Shown here piece after piece: positions 4,855 through 54,502 of a DNA stretch of 64,000 nucleotides (positions within the stretch are counted from its first letter, which is position 1; the number at the start of each line of letters is the position of its first letter). This DNA comes from Octopus vulgaris. Lineage: Eukaryota. Under the pieces are notes generated by a model. That model was not told the origin of the DNA. It ran no database searches and was given only the letters and a program-made list of their open reading frames with translations. The DNA is taken from positions 92,008,001-92,072,000 of the forward strand of contig OX597822.1 of assembly GCA_951406725.2 (NCBI GenBank), given 5' to 3'. A program made the translations under genes and the position numbers.

Positions 4855-5073
4855 TGTAAAGTATAGAAGCCATCTTATCATGGCTAACCACATTGAGGAG
4901 GGGGTGTTACTGTAGCTTTATAGCCCCAAGAGATCTTTCGTCTCTAGCTGGCTTTAGACACAATATCTGTGTCCTAGCCAGCTAGAGACAAAGATCTCTT
5001 GGGGCTATAAAGCTACAGTAACACCCCCTCCCCAATGTGGTTAGCCATGATAAGATGGCTTCTATACTTTACA
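4855..5073. mobile_element. 219-bp near-perfect hairpin MITE with TGT...ACA termini
   Basis: Arms of about 100 bp (TGTAAAGTATAGAAGCCATC... / ...GATGGCTTCTATACTTTACA) with few mismatches. Confidence 0.8.
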
Positions 5074-5907: not shown

Positions 5908-6434
5908 GTATGTGGTTGTATTGAATAAATGACGAATTTCTCTTGATTCATTGCCTGGTCCTGTGTCCCTTTAGCTGTATGCTTTCGGTTGCAAGCATTT
6001 GGTCTAAGTTACTGATGTAAAGATAATTTCCTCACTTCCTCCGACCAGTCATAAAAGTTCTAACAAAAGTCAAAGGTTCTGCCCTCTTTCTCACCAAGCC
6101 ATTAAAAAAAAAAAACCATTGCAACATAAGAAAACAAATATTTAAATGAGAACAAAAGTTATTTCTGTCATTAGCACATTTTGGTAAAGTAGTTGGGTTA
6201 ATTTAATAAAACTCCGATTTTGGTTGATTTGATTTAATAAAACTTGGTATTTAAATCCATACTAATGTCATTGCTAAACTCTTTGACAGTTCTTAGCAGC
6301 CCTCACCCCCCTTGGTAAGTGATGGGGAGAGCGAGTCATCTTGAAAGATGCCTTACATGATGTTAATACTTATTCCATTACGATTGTACATTATTTACAT
6401 TTAACAGATATCTGTCCTCATCTTGTTTATTGTT

Positions 6435-6480
6435 AACCCAATGTTTCGGCTGATATACCCTCCAGCCTTCATCAGGTGTC
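6435..6480 (-). ncRNA. Minimal type I hammerhead ribozyme motif
   Basis: GACAC-CTGATGA-A-GGCTG(gagggtatat)CAGCC-GAAA-CATT-GGGTT: intact CUGAUGA and GAAA cores, 5-bp stem II, stem I GACAC/G(T)GTT. Confidence 0.75.
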
Positions 6481-6526
6481 TTGGGGAAATTTTGAACCTG
6501 GGTTCTCATTCCTAAGGTATTTTTCG

Positions 6527-6636
<110 letters not shown>

Positions 6637-6639
6637 GAC

Positions 6640-7400
6640 GACGACGACCAGCGACCGAGACCTTTGGAAATATGCTGTACGTGAGAAGACCAAGCAGGAC
6701 AAGTGAGCCCAGCCCACTTATGAATGCCTTTCCTCCCTTGGACACAAAGACCGGTTGAGGCAAGCGAAGTCGATATACAACCTCATCCAACGACAGGCAC
6801 CCATGCCAACCCCTTTTGCTTGCGAAGACATGTTGGGGCAAGCGAAAGCGAAATCGAAATCGAACTGAACCAGCCAGGATCCCTGTTCTGGTGGTACGTA
6901 AAAAGCACTATCCGACTCGTGGCCGATGCCAGCGCTGCCTCCACTGGCTTCCGTGCCGGTGGCACGTAAAATACACCAATCCAACCGTACGACAGGCACC
7001 CATGCCAACCCCCTTTGCTTGCGAAGACATGTTGGGGCAAGCGAAATCGAATTGAACCAGCCAGGATCCCTGGTCTGGTGGTACGTAAAAAGCACTATCC
7101 GACTCGTGGCCGATGCCAGCGCCGCCTCCACTGGCTTCCGTGCCGGTGGCACATAAAATACACCAATCCGACCGTGGCCGTTGCCAGCCTCGCCTGGCAC
7201 CTGTGCAGGTGGCACGTAAAAAGCACCCACTACACTCACAGAGTGGTTGGCGTTAGGAAGGGCATCCAGCTGTAGAAACATTGCCAGATAAGACTGGAGC
7301 CTGGTGCAGCCTTCTGGCTTCCCAGATCCCCGGTCGAACCGTCCAACCCATGCTAGCATGGAGAACGGACGTTAAACGATGATGATGATGATGATGATGA
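6640..7400 (+). mobile_element. RTE LINE 3' end nested in the SINE linker
   Basis: DRDLWKYAVREKTKQDK* C-terminus, UTR with an internal ~180-bp duplication, (GAT)n tail. Confidence 0.85.
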
Positions 7401-7633
7401 TTATTATTACTCAGGTCACTGCCTGGAATCGAACTCGGAATCTTGGGGTTAGTAGCTCGCACTCTTAACCACTATGCCATATGCCTGTGACGTAGTGGTT
7501 AACAGCGTGGGCTACTAACACCAAGATTCCAAGTTCGATTCCAGGCAGTTACCTGAAAAATAATACTAATAATAATAACAACAACATCGAAAAATACCTC
7601 AAAAATGAGAACCCAGGTTCAAAATTTCCCCAT

Positions 7634-7679
7634 GACACCTGATGAAGGCTGGAGAGTATATCAGCCAAAACATTGTGTT
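7634..7679 (+). ncRNA. Hammerhead motif, degenerate (GAAA changed to AAAA)
   Basis: GACAC-CTGATGA-A-GGCTG(gagagtatat)CAGCC-AAAA-CATT-GTGTT. Confidence 0.6.
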
Positions 7680-8561
7680 GACAACAAACAAGATGAGGAC
7701 AAATATCCGCCAAATGTAAATAATATACATAATTCCTCATCTCTTGAATATAGAACTCCATTACGATTGTTTAGAAAAGATGTATGTATCATTTGTATAT
7801 TGTAAGTAGTATTAAGACATTAATTCTGCGGGTTTTCTATCATGAATTTTTGGTAGTAAGTAGATCGATCCTTCTGTTAGCCAGGCAAGTATTTGTTCAC
7901 ATTCTATCCAGTTGACTTCAGCATTAAACTCTTATCCATTGCTTCATATCTTCTTCCAAAACTCTTCCACCGCCTCAATTTTGGATCGTTCTTTTACCCA
8001 TATCTATTTTTGCCAATTTCCTTATAAAACTTCTTAGCATTGGTTTTGAATATTTTGTTTTGACGATAGAATTTGCTTCTTTTATCATGCCTTCTAACCT
8101 GTAGCTGTGTATAGTTTCAACAGTTTCTTAGCCACAGGAAGAGTTATAAGATCTTTGATTTTATATTTTTGCTTGATTTTTCCAACTTTTCTTGTTTTGA
8201 CATTTACTCCTCTAGAACATCTATTACATCTCACCAGCACAGGTGTCTTTTACATGTGACCGGCACAGGTGCCTGTTACATGTCACTGGCATGGGTGCTT
8301 TTATCTGACGGAGTAGGATATAACCTAGTCAGCTTTTCCATGAGGTAGTCATATCCAATGATTGGTGTAGCAGCATTATAGTCAACTGCTACAAAGATAA
8401 AGTTGACGCCTTAGACTGAATATTTTAACTGTAGCAAAACTTTGTAAAGTGAAACAAAAGAATTCTGTTGCCAGGATATGAACTGTCTCAGACTATAAGT
8501 CCAGCATAGTCTACTGTAATAGCTTTGCTAATGTTTATAACATTTTTCATTTTATTTGCAG

Positions 8562-11277: not shown

Positions 11278-11421
11278 TCTGCACCATCAATGCTGTACAA
11301 TGAAGCCAGTGGTAAATGTCTTTCTGCTAACCCCAACAAAAGTATTCCATACTTAGAACTCAACATCTGTGATAACCAAAACGCAAACATGAAATTTGCT
11401 TTTGGTTTCCTAATTGATTAA
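11278..11421 (+). CDS. GALNT11: GalNAc-transferase terminal coding exon (ricin lectin gamma repeat)
   Basis: ttatttccAG| then SAPSMLYNEASGKCLSANPNKSIPYLELNICDNQNANMKFAFGFLID, stop TAA at 11419-11421. Confidence 0.88.
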   Translation, partial: SAPSMLYNEASGKCLSANPNKSIPYLELNICDNQNANMKFAFGFLID

Positions 11422-11715: not shown

Positions 11716-12786
11716 AAGAAGTTGAAAATGCAATTTGAGTGTATTAGGTAGTTTGTTTTTAAGGCTTAGCCAGTTTCACAGATTTTTCTAGTTTTCAGTA
11801 AAGTGAGACAGAAAGACATGAGGCTATGCCACAACTGTTATGGTTCTGACTGGAGTTCAAAAATTTTGTTGTTTTAACAGAGAGAACATGGCTTGAATTA
11901 GTATGTGTTTAGGATACAATTTGATTGGCAAAGGATGGTCACATGATTAGACTTTAACATTTTTGTGAGTTCCCCACTACATACATATATTAATGTCATG
12001 TAACAGTATTTTTGGTGCCATAAGTTATGGCTAAAAGAGTTGAGTAAATGTGCCTAGAGACTTGTGTCTAGGGAATTGCATCAGCTTTATTAAAGACATA
12101 TGTGCAAAAAATAGGTCCGCCAAATTCCAAGTCTTCCCATTTTACCTGTGTTCAGTCAATACCATAGATCAAACACAAATAAACAAAGGAAATATATTCA
12201 TACAAAAATACAAATCAAGACTGAATAAACTTTAACCCTACATTCACCAACAACTACTCATGCACAAACTCACTTGACATTGAATTCACACAGTTAATAA
12301 CCTAAACTTTGGATACAATCATGAGTTTTTCTCACATGACACTAACACAAAAAAATGTATGTTTACATGCATATGTACAAATGATAACCATTTAGCCACT
12401 GAAATACATACAAACAACTTCTATCCACGCTACCATTCGACAGATTACATTTAGAGAGCCCTGATTGTTTTGGACTGTCAGTAGACACATTCATTTAACC
12501 ATGTCAGCCATAACTTACATCATCAAAAATAGTGTCACATGACATTAATACATTTCTAAGCCTAATCACATTATCATCCTTTACCAATCAAATTGTATCC
12601 TAAACAGATACTAAATTGAGCCAGGCTCTCTCTATAAAATCAAGAGAATTTTCAAACTCCAGTCAGAAGCAAGACAGTTGTGGTGTAACTCCATATCTTT
12701 CTATTTCACTTAGCTTCTGAAAATCAGAAAAATCTGTGAAACCAGTCAAGCCTTTAAAAATACTCGTAGCGCATTTTCAACTTCTT
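11716..12786. mobile_element. Long-TIR foldback-like non-autonomous element inserted into a SINE
   Basis: AAGAAGTTGAAAATGC... / ...GCATTTTCAACTTCTT; imperfect inverted homology extends about 300 bp (TTTAGGATACAATTTGATTGG vs CCAATCAAATTGTATCCTAAA). SINE halves lie on either side. Confidence 0.7.
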
Positions 12787-18950: not shown

Positions 18951-19717
18951 ATATATATATATATGTATGTATATACATATATGTAGGGAGTTTTAGGTGT
19001 GATGTACAGAAATTGAATATTGAGAAAAATAAAGTCATCAGAATTTTGGAAAAAATCTTTAGATTTCTTCATTATTATTAGCGCTTTCTTTCATTTCTCA
19101 AACTTGTCAAATAAAATTTTGTGAATGTACAAACAGTTTCATTTATATGAAACAGATGTTTTTTGGCTGTCTTGTTTTGAAGAGAACATTTTTTTTTTTT
19201 TTTTTGGCTGAGGTTCCATGACAATGGAGGTAGAGAGATAGAAATATAGGTAGGTAGATAGATAGTCAGACAGATAGATAGGTAGAGGGAGTGAAAGGGA
19301 AGAGGTATCCCCCTTCCTATTCATTCATGTGCTTATATATTTATTTTAGTCATTTAGCATTGTATTGGGATTGGTTTAAGGATGGTGACCTCTTCAGAAA
19401 AAAGGATAGGTGCAGTATGGTCATCACTGAAGTCTTTTTGCTTTCTTTCTGTCTTCCCCTTTCCTCTTGTTTTCTTTTTCTCCTCTTAAAGTTATATTTA
19501 GAACACAAAATGTACTGTCTCCCCTTTTTCTTTCAAACATTCGATTTTGGAGAGAATTTTTTAATGAAAAAACATTAGTATAATTTTTGCAAATAAAATT
19601 TTTTTTAAATAAATAAAATAAAATTATATATATATATATATATATAAATTAATAATAAAATATTAGGGAATAAATCAGATTTAGGATTGAATCCAATTTT
19701 ATAGTAAAATATTATAT

Positions 19718-20054
19718 TATATTAAATTAGAGATAAAACCACTATTAGGCAAATCATACAATGAAAAACTTAAGCCAATATATAAGATTAATTAATTTAT
19801 ATTATTTAAATATATATCAAAATTATTAAAAAAGATAATTAATATAACACTACGATTGTTTCATGGCTGTTCAATTCTTAAAATTTTCAAAAATTTTAAG
19901 AATTGAACAGCTATGAAACGATCGTAGTGTTATATTAATTATCTTTTTTAATAATTTTGATATATATTTAAATAATATAAATTAATTAATCTTATATATT
20001 GGCTTAAGTTTTTCATTGTATGATTTGCCTAATAGTGGTTTTATCTCTAATTTA

Positions 20055-20059
<5 letters not shown>
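19718..20059. repeat. 342-bp near-perfect palindrome between (TA)n tracts
   Basis: Arms 19718-19887 and 19890-20059, two mismatches seen, 2-nt loop. Confidence 0.92.
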
Positions 20060-20086
<27 letters not shown>

Positions 20087-42244: not shown

Positions 42245-43055
42245 GATCTGTTCTTTTGGAACAGATCAGAAGAAGATCTATGAACATTCCACAACATCCT
42301 CAACACACTGCACCCATCTATCAACTTCACGATAGATACCAGCCACAACGAACTTCCCTTCCTAGACATCAACATCAAGATACACAACTCCATCGTCACA
42401 ACAGACTTCTACTACAAAAAAACCGACACACTCCAATATTTAAATTTCTACTCCTGTCACCCATCCCACATAAAAAAAAACATTCCATATAGTGTGGCAA
42501 GATGCATATGCAGCATAGTAACCGACTCACAAACATGCCAAATAAGAGTAAATGAACTTAAAAACTTCCTACTAGAACAAGGAATCTCAAGAGCAATGAA
42601 ACTGGACATCACACAACTCAGAACTCCAAAAACGAAAAACAAAGAAAACATCACCCCCTTCATAAACACACACAACCCTGGAGTTGGCAAAATGTTTCAA
42701 ATCATACATTCAAACTTACCAATAGTCCTACAAAGCCCCAAAATGGGAAACATATTAAACAAATATTTCATAAAAAACAGTAAATGCCAAGACAAAAACC
42801 TGACGAAACAACTAACAAGAGCGAAATTCTTATCAGAAACTAAAACCGAATTCTTTGTAAAAGAGTGCAGAGATGGTAGATGTGGGATCTGCAGTAATCC
42901 CACCTACAAATATATAGAGGGGAAACAAACAAATAAAATTTAAGAGTGGTCACATATTCAAAGTAAATGCAGACATGAATTGCAAGACGCAGAACGTAAT
43001 ATACTGCATAACCTGTCCCACATGCAAGGAGAATTATATAGGCAAAACTAGAAAT
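42245..43055 (+). mobile_element. Penelope-like element fragment (RT C-terminus, Cys linker, GIY-YIG start)
   Basis: LNTLHPSINFT, LPFLDI, YYKKTDTLQYLNFYSCHP, CRDGRCGIC, MNCKTQNVIYCITCPTCKENYIGKT; ends at (TA)n. Confidence 0.88.
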
Positions 43056-46990: not shown

Positions 46991-49939
46991 TGCAAATATG
47001 TGTTGGATGGCGATATATTTGCGGCAGGGTTTTATAGCTAGATGCACTTCCTATTGCCTCTCCCATCTGTTTTACTAGAAAGGGATTAAAAAAAAATTTC
47101 ATTTGTCTTTGAAGGCACAGTGTAACTAATTTATAAAGTGAAGAAGGAGTGGAAACATTACAGCTTGCTCAGACAGTGACAACTGAAGCGGTAGTGTGTC
47201 AATATGCATGCAGTGTGTGTGTGTGTGTGTGTGTGTGTCTGTTGGTTGACACTGGGCTATAAAATGTTCACTTGCTGAAGGTATCACACTGGGATGGGAA
47301 GTGATTTTAACCACACACCATGCCTGTATTTAAGATCATCATCATCATCATCGTTAAACGTCCTCCTTCTATGCTGGTATGGTTTGGATGGTTTGACAGG
47401 AACTGGCCAGGCAGAAGCCTTCAACATATTTCTGTGTCTGTTTTGGCATGGTTTTTACGGCTTGATGCCCTTCCTAACACCAACCACTCCACAGAGTAGG
47501 CTGAGTGTTTTTATGTGGTACCAGCACAGATGAGGTCAGTTTTGGCATGATTTTTACAGCTGGATGCCTTTCTGGATTGGATACTTTTTAAGTGGTGCCG
47601 CACAGGCAGCATCATATTTGCAAATGTTCTTGCTCCATGTTTTTTGTGTGCATATGTATGAGGGAGAGAGGGAGGGGGGACAGGCAGACTACTACACAAA
47701 CAGTTTTAAGGCTTGTTATTAAATGTAAAGAGGAAGAACAGCCATAGAATTCTGTTGTTATCAGGGATTTGAAACTCCAACTCCAAACTATTTTACACTA
47801 TATCTCAAATATCAGTTGTTGATGTTATCTCAGACTAAACCAATGAGATTTTTTTTCTGGTCAAAACCAGCCTGCCTGGAAAAAACAAACATTGAACTGG
47901 CTGAACCAGTGGTTTCTTAAGGGAATCAACCGACCTGAATGCTTGATGATCATCAGGCAAAAACAGATTACCAAATTCTTTGACAACATCAAAATGACTT
48001 AAACAGAAAATCAACCAGCCAGAGCATAGAGCATGGACCCCCTACTGGTCAACAAGGAATAAAAATATTCCACAAACAAATGATTTCATGGGGAAGTCAA
48101 CTGAACTTTGCCAAAGCAAAAAATATTTGACCAAAACAAATGACATCACATAATTTACAACCAATCAGAACTTGATCCTTTACTGTAGTCAACAAGGAAT
48201 GAAAACATTTGACAAACAAATAACATCATCAGAAAGTCAACCAAGTAGAAAGCTGGACTTTGCCAAAACAAAACTATTTGACCAAAACATCTATGAGAAT
48301 AATAAACATCATCAGATTCACAACCAATAAAAATTTGATCCTTTCCCATAAAAAAAAAAATATATATATTCTAAACAATTTCAACTTAAAATATTTCAAA
48401 TTTTAAACCAGTGACCAGCAAGGAAGAACTTCATGTACTGTGACAGAAATCAATGAAGCACTCCTTCATGCACTATGACATAAAATGTAAAAAACCTTTT
48501 TTCTTTCTCTCCATCTTTTTCTGTCTCCTTTTTTTAAATAAAAACCGTCCAACCCATGTCAGCATGGAAAGCGGATGTTAAACGACAATGATGATGATGA
48601 TGATTTTCAATAACTTCACAGCAATTGAACTTATAAAATTCTCTTATGGATTAATTGTTGTTAATAAAGAGGATCACTAGTTTCTTCCGATTGCGGCTTT
48701 TAATGTATTGTACTTTTATTAATTTGTTTCACTGTCACTCATTTTATTCCTTTATAAGGGACAGAATTGTTTGTTCAAAGGCAACCAATAGAAATATAGC
48801 ATCTAGATGGAATAGGCTGGGACTGGAATTTGAAAGAATCTTAGTTAAGAGAAAATAGTTTCTTTCAAAGTGTATAATTTCTGTTTGCAGGATTGTTGTC
48901 ATTGTCCTCCCCTTCCTCCTCCTTCTTCTTGATAATGGCAATAGAGGGTGAGATAGGCGTTATTCATAGTTTCACAGCAATTAGTATATTTTATTTCTAG
49001 TGAACTGCACTTTCAATGTAGCATGCTACGTTAAAGAGGGCCAAAACATTTTCCTGGTATTTTCAGAAAATAATGTTTCATGTGAATGATATTCCCTCAT
49101 CACTACAGTTAAATCTGATATTGTTTAATGAGGAATCTGTGTTCAAATCCAACTAAATAATTATTTTCATTCTGTTCTCAATAGCTTTCAATCAATTCTA
49201 GTTATGTCTGTGTCTTCTGTCTAGCAATTATTTCCCTTAAACTTTATTAGCATTTGTAAATATTCTTGCTAACATATCAATAATTGAAAAAAATTAGTGT
49301 GTGTGTTTGTGTGTTTATGTGCGTCTTTTGAGTAATATTTTAATATGATTAAAAGCCATTTTCATTATAAAGTTTAATATATATATATATATATATATAC
49401 ATGTTTTACATTGATTTAATATTGTATCATATATTCCTATGTATGCATATGGCAGTAATGCTGGCAAGGCATGCAATATGAAGGAAGCTTGAACATCAAT
49501 AGTGTAAAACATAAAGTAGAGCTGTAAGATGAAATGCAATTATGTTATAAGAACTTGCTTTTATAAAGCAGTAAAAAATTACTAGCTAAATACGGCTAAT
49601 AAAATTTTATTTTTAAATATATATATATATATACACACATGCACATATGTTTACAAATTTGTGTTGCAAGATTCCTTATGTGAAGTCATGTGTTGAAATA
49701 GATATTGTATTTTAGGATAGTCTTTTTTTTTTCAAAATAAACACAGGCACTGTATATTCATTCTTCACTTGCTTATCACTATTCTTATTCTAACTCATGT
49801 CTGGAATAAGAACAGTGCCTGGACATCTTTAGTCACACATCTGTGACTTCCTCAGCAACACTTTCCATCTTTGTGTTTGCTCTTCCATTCTGTTCTATGA
49901 TGTGTATCCTTATATACGCATATGTGTGTGTGTGTCATT

Positions 49940-50265
49940 GTTCTTGGTTGCAAGTCACACAGCTGCAAGAGAGTTAAGCCCTGTTCATTGTGTAACAACA
50001 TGTGGCAAGTCAATTCCATTAGGTATCATAACAGAAATGTTATGATTTATATAGAAGGTGGGATGTGCAGAGATTCCCATTTGGTGTTTGCAACAGAATG
50101 CTCCAAACACAACTTGATTTATGTTGGTTGTACAACAGAACAGTTTAGCAAAAGATTCAGTGGGCACAGATATGATGTCAGGCACAATAACAGTAGTTTG
50201 ACAGAACTTGCCCAACATTTTACATCAGATGTCTGCAATTTTGAAAAAGATTTGAAAGTACTTAA
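49940..50265 (+). mobile_element. Penelope-like GIY-YIG endonuclease fragment
   Basis: CSLC linker; CRDSHLVFATECSKHNLIYVGCT...KRFSGHR...LAQHF. Confidence 0.7.
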
Positions 50266-50644
50266 AATATTCTCAATTTGCTACACTTTCAGTCCTCAAA
50301 ATGCATGAGGAGAAATATGTTTGTGAGTTATTAACATCATGCCCTGAACGATTGTACAAAATGACAGGGGAATATCATCATCATCATATTTACACAAAAC
50401 TGCTTGATTAAATATTCTTTTTTTCTTTTGCCAGTTGTAAAATTGAAAGTTGAAGACTGATAATGTCATTCTATCAAAATGGGAACGCAGGTTGCCCTTG
50501 TTCAAATGTTTGAATTTGAATTTCTATGTATCACTTTTCATTTTGAACTTGACAAAGACAGGCAAGCTGTCAAAATATTGTTCAAACCAATAAAACATCA
50601 ATTGCAATCACATTGTGCTCTTCGTATTGTCTATTATTATTATT

Positions 50645-50868
50645 AAGGCAGCAAGCTAGCAGAATCATTAGCATGCTGGGCGAAATGCTTAGCAGTGTTT
50701 TGTCCGTCTTACATTCAGAATTCAAATTCTGCTGAAGTTGACTTTGCCTTTCATTCTTTCAGGGTTGATAAAATAAGTACCAGTTGAGCACTGGGGGTTG
50801 ATTTGGGGTCATTGTAATTGACCTAACTCCTCCTCAAAATTTCAGGCCTTGTGCCTTTAGTAGAAAGG

Positions 50869-52339: not shown

Positions 52340-52741
52340 GTTTCAGAAAAAAATCTCTCAAAATTCACGGAATTAAAATTACACTTCGATTATTGTACAA
52401 AACTGTAGTTGAACTGTTTACGAAGTATAATACGTGTTTTCACGAATGTACTAAAGAGATTTGCTCTGATATTCTCATTTAAATACGAATAGGTAAATTC
52501 GGGCGGCTTTGGGCGGTTTGGTCACATTAACCAAAATTTTTTTCGGGCGGCTTTGGGCGGTTTGGTAACGAAAGGGTTAATCATGCATTATCTCATAGCT
52601 TTGAGGTTTCAATGATATGATTGTTTATTTTTAGAATGTCAATGTAGGTTAGGTGTGAGAGGCTGGATATCGCCAGTTTGAATATAAAACATGTAGAATA
52701 TATTGGGCTGGATTTGGCCAGTTTAAACGCTAAAGGGTTAA
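52340..52741. mobile_element. Adjacent piggyBac-type MITE ends
   Basis: Two AAAGGG|TTAA termini (about 52580 and 52741); the first has a duplicated CGGGCGGCTTTGGGCGGTTTGGT. Confidence 0.6.
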
Positions 52742-53293
52742 GTAGTTTCAAATTGAATGTTGTTGAAAACTTCAAGTACTTAGGTGGTTGGTGGAGCAGT
52801 TCAGAAGTAGATATCAAGATCAGGAAGGTACAAGCATGGACAGCTTGTCAGAAACTAAAGAACTCCAAATTGCCCAAGTGAATCAAAATCAAGCTATTCC
52901 TTGCAACTGTCAAATCTGTGCTATTATATGACAGTGAAACATGGACATGAACAAAGATCAGGGGTTCCCAACCTTTTTTTACTGTGGACTACCAAAATAA
53001 GTAATTTTTTCCTGTGGACCACTTCAAATTTTAAATTTATTATAAAAGAACTGCTACTCGTAAATATTAGTATCATTTTCACTTTGCAATGAAAGTTCCT
53101 TTTTTGTTCTTGTAAGAGACATCACAGAGAACAAATAACAGAACACCAATAACAAAACCAATTTGCAGATGCACATGATTCACCAATAACAAAACCAATT
53201 TGCAAATGCACATGAGCTTTATTTGATAGAATCAAATAAAAAAGGTTACTAAGTCATGGAAAACATCCCCTTTTATTCAGTAAAAAAGCTGTA

Positions 53294-53437
53294 TGTTATT
53301 TACATTCGACAGATATTTGTCCTCATCTTGTTTGTTGTTAACACAATGTTTCAGCTGATATATCCTCCAGCCTTCATCAGGTGTCTTGGGGAAATTTCGA
53401 ATCTGGGTTCTCATTCCTAAGGTATTTTTCGATGTTG

Positions 53438-53487
<50 letters not shown>

Positions 53488-53798
53488 GTTCAGGTCACTG
53501 CTTGGAATTGAACTTGGAATCTTGGGGTTAGTAGCCCCACGTTCTTAACCACTATGCCATATGCCTGTTGTTATATGGCGATTCCAAGCAGTGACCTGAA
53601 CAATAATAATAATAATAATAATAACATCGAAAAATACCTTAGGAATGAGAACCCAGGTTTGAAATTTCCCCAAGACACCTAAAGAAGGCTGGCGGGTATA
53701 TCAGCCAAAACATTGTGTTAACAACAAATGAGATGAGGACAAATATCCGTTGAATGTAAATAATGTACATAATTCCTCATCTCTTAAATATAGAACTG
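53294..53798. mobile_element. Head-to-head pair of tRNA-head / hammerhead-tail SINEs (locus 2)
   Basis: 12-bp TSD AAAAAAGCTGTA at 53282-53293 and 53799-53810; same architecture as 6388-7756. Confidence 0.88.
53340..53385 (-). ncRNA. Minimal type I hammerhead ribozyme motif
   Basis: GACAC-CTGATGA-A-GGCTG(gaggatatat)CAGCT-GAAA-CATT-GTGTT. The partner at 53674-53719 (+) is degenerate (CTAAAGA, AAAA). Confidence 0.72.
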
Positions 53799-54502
53799 AA
53801 AAAAGCTGTACAGTTAAAATATAACAATGTGAAGGGTAAATTAAAAAAATGTGAGGAGTGAAATGGGATCAGTACAAAAGGTTGTGTAAACGTTTGAGGG
53901 AATATAGCAAATTGAATTAACTTAAAAATGTCAGCGACAAGTCGTCGGGAAAAACGTCAAACCTTCAGTGAGATCCTTGGGCTTGCTTTTTATCCACAAG
54001 CTGAAAAATCCTTGGCTCATTTTGGCTCAAGTGAATTCTCAAATCAGCATTGTTATCGAGGTTCAAACGCTTCCGCTACTTCATGAACAAGTGGATGACA
54101 AGGGAAAATCCCTTTTCAGCCAAGTAGGATGTCGAGAGATTTATGATAAAAGGCTTGACCTGTTCAAACAGCTTTGGATATTTGTGAGAATAATTCAACC
54201 AAGCCTCAACCCAGTTGTTTTCAGACAGTTTGTGCAGATTATCATCTACCGTTGCCTCACAAGTATATCGTTCATTGTGTGAAGAGAGACCACAAAAATT
54301 GAGATATTTAAAGCCAAAAGATCTTCAAAGCTAATATTGAAGTTTACGTGAAGGAAAGATAGATGCCCGATTACATATTTGTGCAAGTTGTTATCTACCA
54401 CATCCAATTAGCTTAGTAAAATCTGGACAGAGAAACAGGAAGATTTCTTAAAGTTAGTTATTCTATAGGAGAATAACAAAACCATATAATGTGTATTTTT
54501 TC

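Follow-up and report, generated by a model that had tools for sequence, protein, structure and literature searches.

The two inverted hammerhead-containing repeats at positions 53282-53810 of the window (the whole stretch of 64,000 nucleotides of Octopus vulgaris DNA analysed here) are a real, single insertion, likely of the Penelope-like element (PLE) type, of a non-autonomous hammerhead repeat, and a SINE that borrows the Penelope machinery is a more likely explanation for them than a new priming mechanism. The geometry of this locus (pair B) and of a second locus (pair A), with two start sites and a tail on one side only, is real, but it is already a published PLE signature. The match to the PLE arrangement of inverted pseudo-LTRs plus a tail, as described in the available text of PMC3846280, PMC8557442 and PMC11167929, had been missed in an earlier, sequence-only reading of this DNA.

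Pair B is one insertion (53294-53798) in which two copies of the hammerhead repeat are arranged head-to-head inside a hAT-like relic. The features of the locus are as follows.

52959..54480, minus strand: host hAT-like relic, with a terminal motif at 52959 and a transposase-like remnant at 53968-54324; the far boundary is approximate and the flank has multi-copy depth
53282..53293, plus strand: left copy of the target site duplication (TSD), 12 bp, the final 4 nt of which also match the continuation of the element
53294..53568, minus strand: inverted arm, with complete head, microsatellite and hammerhead body, without tail
53340..53385, minus strand: minimal type I hammerhead motif of the inverted arm; core and helices I and II present, helix III palindrome broken by one change
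53433..53489, minus strand: (AAT/AAC)n stretch that links head and body and exceeds its forward-arm counterpart by 30 nt
53493..53568, minus strand: tRNA-like head with A-box-like (53549-53559) and B-box-like (53506-53514) motifs
53569..53578, plus strand: head-to-head junction, 10 nt, part of which matches the start of the head
53579..53769, plus strand: body of the forward arm, with the 3' part of the head, microsatellite (53599-53625) and hammerhead
53674..53719, plus strand: hammerhead motif of the forward arm; palindrome broken, and three changes in the core
53770..53798, plus strand: tail of 29 nt, or 33 nt when the 4 shared nt are counted with the target, on the forward arm only, stopping at the modal family end
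53799..53810, plus strand: right TSD copy, 12 bp

The 12-bp direct repeat occurs just twice in the 64-kb window, at these two positions. In one contig row (run X14, depth 106.5) the flanks of pair B were joined without the insert, with a somewhat longer A-run; this row may represent a paralogous hAT copy or an empty allele. The hAT-like terminal motif and the transposase-like remnant in the flanks bear out the claim that the pair is nested in a hAT relic. The motif at 52959 is, we assume, a hAT terminal motif. For the remnant at 53968-54324, 22 of the 30 Atlas matches fell in PF05699 clusters (15% of the members of the best such cluster carry PF05699), and a Pfam search gave no hAT match. Positions 52650-52958 hold a relic, presumably LINE RT-like, that is interrupted by the hAT-like element, so that three layers are nested at this locus; Pfam returned no match for that LINE RT-like relic.

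Alignment of the two arms resulted in 183 matches, 18 mismatches and 78 gap columns, with a longest perfect run of 42 nt, and on folding 199 bp were paired and the tail was left unpaired. The "uninterrupted ~505-bp inverted repeat" described previously is thus a gapped structure in which ~200 bp pair, and the "long intronic dsRNA" deduced from it was overstated, also with regard to its location. GALNT11 is the only host gene found in the window; its last coding exon lies at 11278-11418 (tblastn), and one of its exons is 100% identical to an Octopus sinensis protein. Since the GALNT11 coding sequence ends at 11418, pair A is intronic, whereas pair B, 42 kb past the last coding exon, is not in this gene; it may lie within an intron of a gene with exons outside the window. 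Judging by the match of the junction to the start of the head, the forward arm may originally have been near full length and may have lost ~46 nt since. The copy has decayed and is likely inert, a relic without sign of function.

Each arm follows the order of tRNA-like head, (AAT/AAC)n, body with hammerhead motif and optional tail, and the unit, of ~280-300 nt, is non-coding. A scan with A- and B-box patterns returned three sites in the window, all of them within this repeat family. The head of pair B scored 17 bits (E 1.3) against the Rfam tRNA model, the gathering score of which is 29; pair A gave no Rfam tRNA match, and ARAGORN found no tRNA. At the gathering threshold there was no Rfam match anywhere in the window, hammerhead included. 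The tRNA origin of the head and Pol III transcription from it are putative.

A relaxed hammerhead descriptor matched exactly the four arms of pairs A and B in the window. The motif has a 6-bp helix II preceded by an unpaired base, a 5-bp helix I, and a helix III that is palindromic in the family majority; in the inverted arm of pair B, helices I and II fold as expected. The change that breaks the palindrome (position 53347) is carried by all four window copies, whereas 73-89% of the family depth is without it. Judged from their sequences, the forward hammerhead of pair B is likely dead, and so, likely, are the ribozymes of the window copies as a group. An ORF with a telomerase-like RT and a GIY-YIG endonuclease was not found in the 505-bp insert. 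Head-to-tail tandem hammerhead units are not the arrangement of pairs A and B, both of which are head-to-head.

The second locus shows the same organization.

6375..7770, unstranded: pair A, of the same repeat family and geometry, with a 13-14-bp TSD (copies at 6375-6387 and 7758-7770) and a second SINE nested in its inverted arm; within a GALNT11 intron

The nested element (~6650-7400) is a different, repeat-rich, SINE-like sequence that sits in the microsatellite of the inverted arm. The proposal that pairs A and B are separate events was confirmed: their TSDs differ (12 versus 13-14 bp), and so do their central junctions, that of pair A being a near-perfect palindrome with no spacer. The inverted copy was also correctly said to end at the same point in both pairs, as both inverted arms cease to match the element at one common base, the equivalent of 53769, and this end overlaps the target by 4 nt in pair B and 3 nt in pair A. 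The tail, of 29-33 nt, is present on one arm only at both loci. The forward copy does have a defined end, but it lies one base later than claimed, at G53798, which is the modal end of the family.

To extend the analysis from two loci to the family, contigs of four public runs were compared with positions 53000-54100 at 80% likeness, an approximation of the sequence logo and breakpoint histogram that had been proposed as a check. The runs correspond to related species that share loci and are not independent samples. The rows evaluated were the best supported, namely 24 of 1532 loose-end rows, 15 of 305 joints and 40 of 226 variant rows. The contigs matched numbered 35,521, 33,630, 16,929 and 28,609 per run, which is not a copy number. 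Among the best 24 of 1532 loose-end rows, the strongest end was at 53798 (424, 495, 310 and 372 contigs in the four runs), followed by 53296 (295, 427, 276 and 321 contigs) and 53773 (116, 185, 125 and 117 contigs). Because the reference arm has two mismatches there, the end at 53296 pools tail-less ends equivalent to ~53763-53768. In the same 24 rows, the sums per run amounted to 655/768/407/595 for tail ends and 411/612/401/438 for tail-less ends, a tail share of 0.50-0.61, or about 1:1 as the pairs predict. Eight of the best 15 of 305 joints connect the inverted to the forward arm at other truncation points, and other head-to-head pairs thus exist; 7 "opposite strand" joints were set aside as likely artefacts of contigs that had been divided over both arms. 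The two classes of end, 25-35 nt apart, and the head-to-head arrangement thus characterise the family as a whole. The two defined ends ~30 nt apart noted at the outset therefore hold family-wide, with a sharply defined end of the tail (53798) and, 25-35 nt upstream of it, a zone of tail-less ends.

The head bins reached a summed depth of 59,000-840,000, as compared to 9-126 for the lowest flank bin. The head is thus no isolated sequence, and its high depth and the two independent loci together ruled out a one-off chimera. Head depth amounted to only about one tenth to one quarter of that of the body; many family copies may be truncated or carry other heads, the link between head and body across the microsatellite being untraceable in contigs.

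Several further observations concern the ends of the family. The tail-less end lies within a run of imperfect 9-nt repeats (53753-53773), and many family copies seem to have an extra one, as seen in the loose-end consensus and also in peptides such as P0004, P0009, P0017 and P0019. Possible causes are a peculiarity of a subfamily or slippage where the inner start lies. A joint from 53568 to 53753, at a short sequence common to the head start and the body, reached high depth (1429 in X1, 612 in X2) and may be a recurrent junction or an amplified composite. The plurality flank, in element sense, was T-rich ~10-18 nt beyond the ends 53296 and 53798 in all four runs, with an agreement of only 0.43-0.49, which hints at a two-fold symmetric target preference, as from a dimeric endonuclease. 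At the peptide level (P0002-P0057) there is a related repeat family of head-to-tail tandem hammerhead-plus-tail units with several different 5' parts and, judged by eye, the same two end classes.

The closest published parallels are EN+ PLE insertions. In Adineta, Pen2a has inverted pseudo-LTRs, a 31-bp tail on one of them and 8-10-bp duplications, and the pseudo-LTRs are reported to suffice for mobilisation in trans (PMC3846280). For the lizard Anolis Poseidon element, an in vitro study of 2024 reports that both strands are cut and extended, that two adjacent starts bound the tail, that the start is not homologous to the target, that the protein is a predicted dimer and that ribozyme cleavage is not needed; the later insertion steps are stated there as unvalidated (PMC11167929). 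As far as these accounts go, the octopus pairs share with EN+ PLE insertions the inverted head-to-head arms, one short duplication around the whole unit, a tail on one arm (29-33 nt, versus 31 bp and 30-40 bp in published PLEs), a hammerhead upstream of the tail with a cut site that does not define the ends, and a short frame through both. Unlike them, the octopus pairs lack an ORF for an RT-endonuclease, their arms each consist of a complete short unit headed by a tRNA-like sequence, many tail-less ends of the family carry extra 9-nt repeats, and the TSD measures 12-14 bp as compared to 8-10 bp in Adineta.

Similarities also exist with other hammerhead repeats. The minimal palindromic hammerheads of metazoan PLEs, some of which form opposite-strand pairs 100-700 bp apart (PMC4209133), resemble the octopus motif in their long helix II preceded by an unpaired base, short helix I and palindromic helix III, and in that most copies are dispersed and some form opposite-strand pairs (~300 bp apart in octopus); the available text of that study interprets dispersed motifs as truncated PLEs and describes no Pol III head. 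Animal non-LTR retrozymes, seen as non-autonomous PLE derivatives in tandem arrays (bioRxiv 10.64898/2026.07.22.740005), are likewise non-coding, have a type I hammerhead and, as proposed there, make use of PLE enzymes in the way that SINEs use those of LINEs. They are, however, defined as head-to-tail tandem arrays, whereas the octopus copies are head-to-head pairs with a duplication, and the words tRNA, tail, target site and polymerase III are absent from the main text of the preprint. The Pol III hammerhead SINE-like repeats of Schistosoma (review, PMC6765202) equally combine a Pol III-type SINE-like element with a hammerhead; these are tandem, their hammerhead frees monomers, and the available text of the review describes no tail, inverted pairs or PLE partner. 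According to PMC13282606, the O. vulgaris genome is 6.83% Penelope-like DNA, with recent activity of 31 Penelope-like families and 893 families of unclassified SINEs, and the available text makes no mention of hammerheads; that of PMC8969392, PMC10886601 and PMC6962438 held nothing specific on such repeats.

Considering this anatomy, we favour with moderate confidence the explanation that each pair is one insertion of a non-coding, tRNA-headed hammerhead repeat, likely a SINE-type PLE passenger, and that copying probably began at the two ends of a staggered cut simultaneously. What the analysis shows is the repeat unit, the duplication that flanks it, a tail on one side and, across the family, two classes of end; the steps below, together with the use of two RNAs, are what we infer. 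The unit would be transcribed by Pol III from its head. A PLE RT-endonuclease, a predicted dimer, would recognise the pseudo-LTR-like 3' part and nick both target strands 12-14 nt apart. Both 3'-OH ends would then serve as primers for reverse transcription: one would start at the tail end (53798), the other at an inner site ~30 nt upstream. Protein and RNA would fix these start sites, with at most an occasional contribution from a short match to the target, for example TGT(A). Both cDNAs would extend towards the RNA 5' end, which would explain why both arms hold the same sequence, and this would require two copies of the RNA, or a single copy that is read twice. The palindromic helix III of the hammerhead could hold two RNAs together. 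Finally, the cDNA ends would be joined head-to-head, and repair would leave the TSD.

The geometry at two independent loci, the end classes at about 1:1, the further head-to-head joints and the PLE-form hammerhead support a PLE as the driving element, as do the PLE-like relics in the window and the recently active Penelope-like families of O. vulgaris. Against this counts that no autonomous partner sharing the 3' end was found, and the case for a PLE drive hence rests on anatomy. The model is also weakened by the sub-threshold tRNA score, the pair A head with no tRNA match, the missing Rfam hammerhead match, the low depth of the head relative to the body and the local target match of 3-4 nt, which it treats as occasional.

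A possible, though rather unlikely, alternative is fold-back self-priming, also driven by a PLE, in which folding at the head of a cDNA, or of an antisense template, leads to a second round of copying, and the endonuclease resolves the product at the tail boundary to leave the tail on one side. Fold-back was proposed in PMC3846280 and, for the tail, in PMC8557442, and the spacer-free palindrome at the junction of pair A is what it would produce. Three variants, two in body columns (CpG-type sites) and one at a head site, are common to both arms of one pair as opposed to the other pair; they fit fold-back copying or gene conversion equally and count against the model with two starts. Two other variants are common to the same-orientation arms across pairs A and B. 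The arms differ at 12 and 13 of 139 positions within pairs, which is not below the 9-16 of 139 between pairs, although age would mask such a signal, and the arm comparison does not decide between priming on two RNAs and fold-back. Joints (best 15 of 305) that truncate either arm at varied points also argue against fold-back, as does the direct in vitro extension of both target strands from two starts matching the genomic ends (PMC11167929).

The sequence-only reading had offered a different explanation, as a defined mechanism: the inner start is picked by a target end in TGT(A) that anneals to the internal GUACA of the RNA. Such priming would resemble L1 twin priming, and we consider it improbable. 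The TSD does end in TGT(A) matching the element at both loci (4 nt in B, 3 nt in A), and the polarity is right, as a top-strand primer builds the tail-less arm. The chance of a target match of at least 3 nt at both loci was p ~0.010, and p ~0.002 with the same end base (200,000 random sites), under a permissive null and for a test picked after seeing the data with n=2; at the tail end, the target match was 0-1 nt. The check on breakpoints returned two end classes 25-35 nt apart, but TGT(A) was not visible as a family-wide rule. In the largest tail-less class, the plurality letter after TGTA was A and not C in all four runs, often with an extra 9-nt repeat or flank, so that the plurality is without the CA that annealing would need. 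Furthermore, ends exactly at 53769 or 53290 were absent from the best 24 of 1532 loose-end rows, where rows ranked lower may each hold up to ~100 contigs and the reference mismatch blurs that end, and the class at 53773 is a second tail-less one. In L1 twin priming, the inverted and direct segments derive from different parts of one RNA; both arms of each octopus pair hold one and the same region, which single-template twin priming cannot yield. The start of the lizard PLE is also non-homologous to the target (PMC11167929). A required annealing of TGT(A) is thus doubtful and unsupported as a rule, and a match of the target may at most give occasional help in priming.

Very improbable is an ordinary LINE-driven SINE or a MITE-like palindrome, with pairs from later duplication or inversion and an incidental hammerhead: no PLE partner was found and LINE relics are common in the window (we take them to be RTE-like), but a single TSD brackets both arms, the insert-free contig lacks both, TSD length varies (12 versus 13-14), the ends are asymmetric by ~30 nt, the tail end is without poly(A) or simple repeat, and the family retains a PLE-type hammerhead.

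The partner search made use of a 51-codon frame that runs through hammerhead and tail (7605-7757 on the plus strand, and in other arms) and resembles the ORF start in PLE pseudo-LTRs. In O. bimaculoides this frame has a protein annotation, and a dystrobrevin beta isoform (P0022) contains a portion of it. It had 57 matches among protein representatives; none was seen with an RT, four longer ones look unrelated, and no autonomous partner was found among the longer proteins. The named matches were an uncharacterised O. bimaculoides protein and the dystrobrevin isoform, which bears a piece of the repeat. A profile search with the frame gave 7 of 26 candidates, too few for sampling ends. Pattern scans had no match in metagenomes (0 and 0) or viral contigs (0); one GTDB match (18-23 nt, bacterial bin) was treated as chance, as nothing else there was alike.

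The window itself contains PLE-like relics. A GIY-YIG domain at 49901-50305 (E 0.0025) was below the cut-off; in the region 49901-50650, this GIY-YIG-like relic precedes a hammerhead-like motif that is decayed and differs in its stem, and the region is probably the 3' end of another PLE family. It was rejected as the partner, given the different stem and no BLAST match to the unit. A relic frame at 42284-42940 on the plus strand, with 29 of 30 Atlas matches in PF26215-bearing clusters, looks to us like the C-terminal region of a PLE RT. Other inverted structures in the window are an AT-rich palindrome at 19713-20064 (175-bp arms, 98% complementary, 2-nt spacer), a palindrome at 4855-5073 in a GALNT11 intron (84-bp arms at 99%, with a further paired centre) and inverted 154-bp arms at 11801-12711 (81% complementary, 603 bp apart).

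The literature searched, which did not extend to Repbase, Dfam and subscription journals, contained no account of a SINE that combines a tRNA head with the hammerhead and tail of a PLE. Such a SINE, very abundant and moved by the PLE machinery, is possibly new, and the family may already be catalogued. In its strongest form, which we put forward only tentatively and do not expect to hold in full, this would be a genuine Pol III SINE with a tRNA head, which has exchanged the LINE machinery for that of Penelope and is inserted mainly as head-to-head dimers by symmetric double priming, with the two RNAs held together by a dimeric hammerhead. If that were true, octopus genomes would be seeded with very many ready-made hairpins of ~200 bp, a candidate source of their high dsRNA content and hyper-editing; PMC5625713 reports unusually many dsRNA-forming loci and hyper-editing in octopus, and heavy editing of lizard Penelope. 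A tRNA-headed SINE with a PLE partner would also add a SINE class. The origin of the inverted repeats and one-sided tail of PLEs is still debated, earlier papers having proposed fold-back. Many short, complete insertions would show, with statistics at the level of single bases, how the two start sites of PLEs are selected, and a short, very abundant family with clean duplications could separate priming on two RNAs, fold-back and microhomology from a single assembly.
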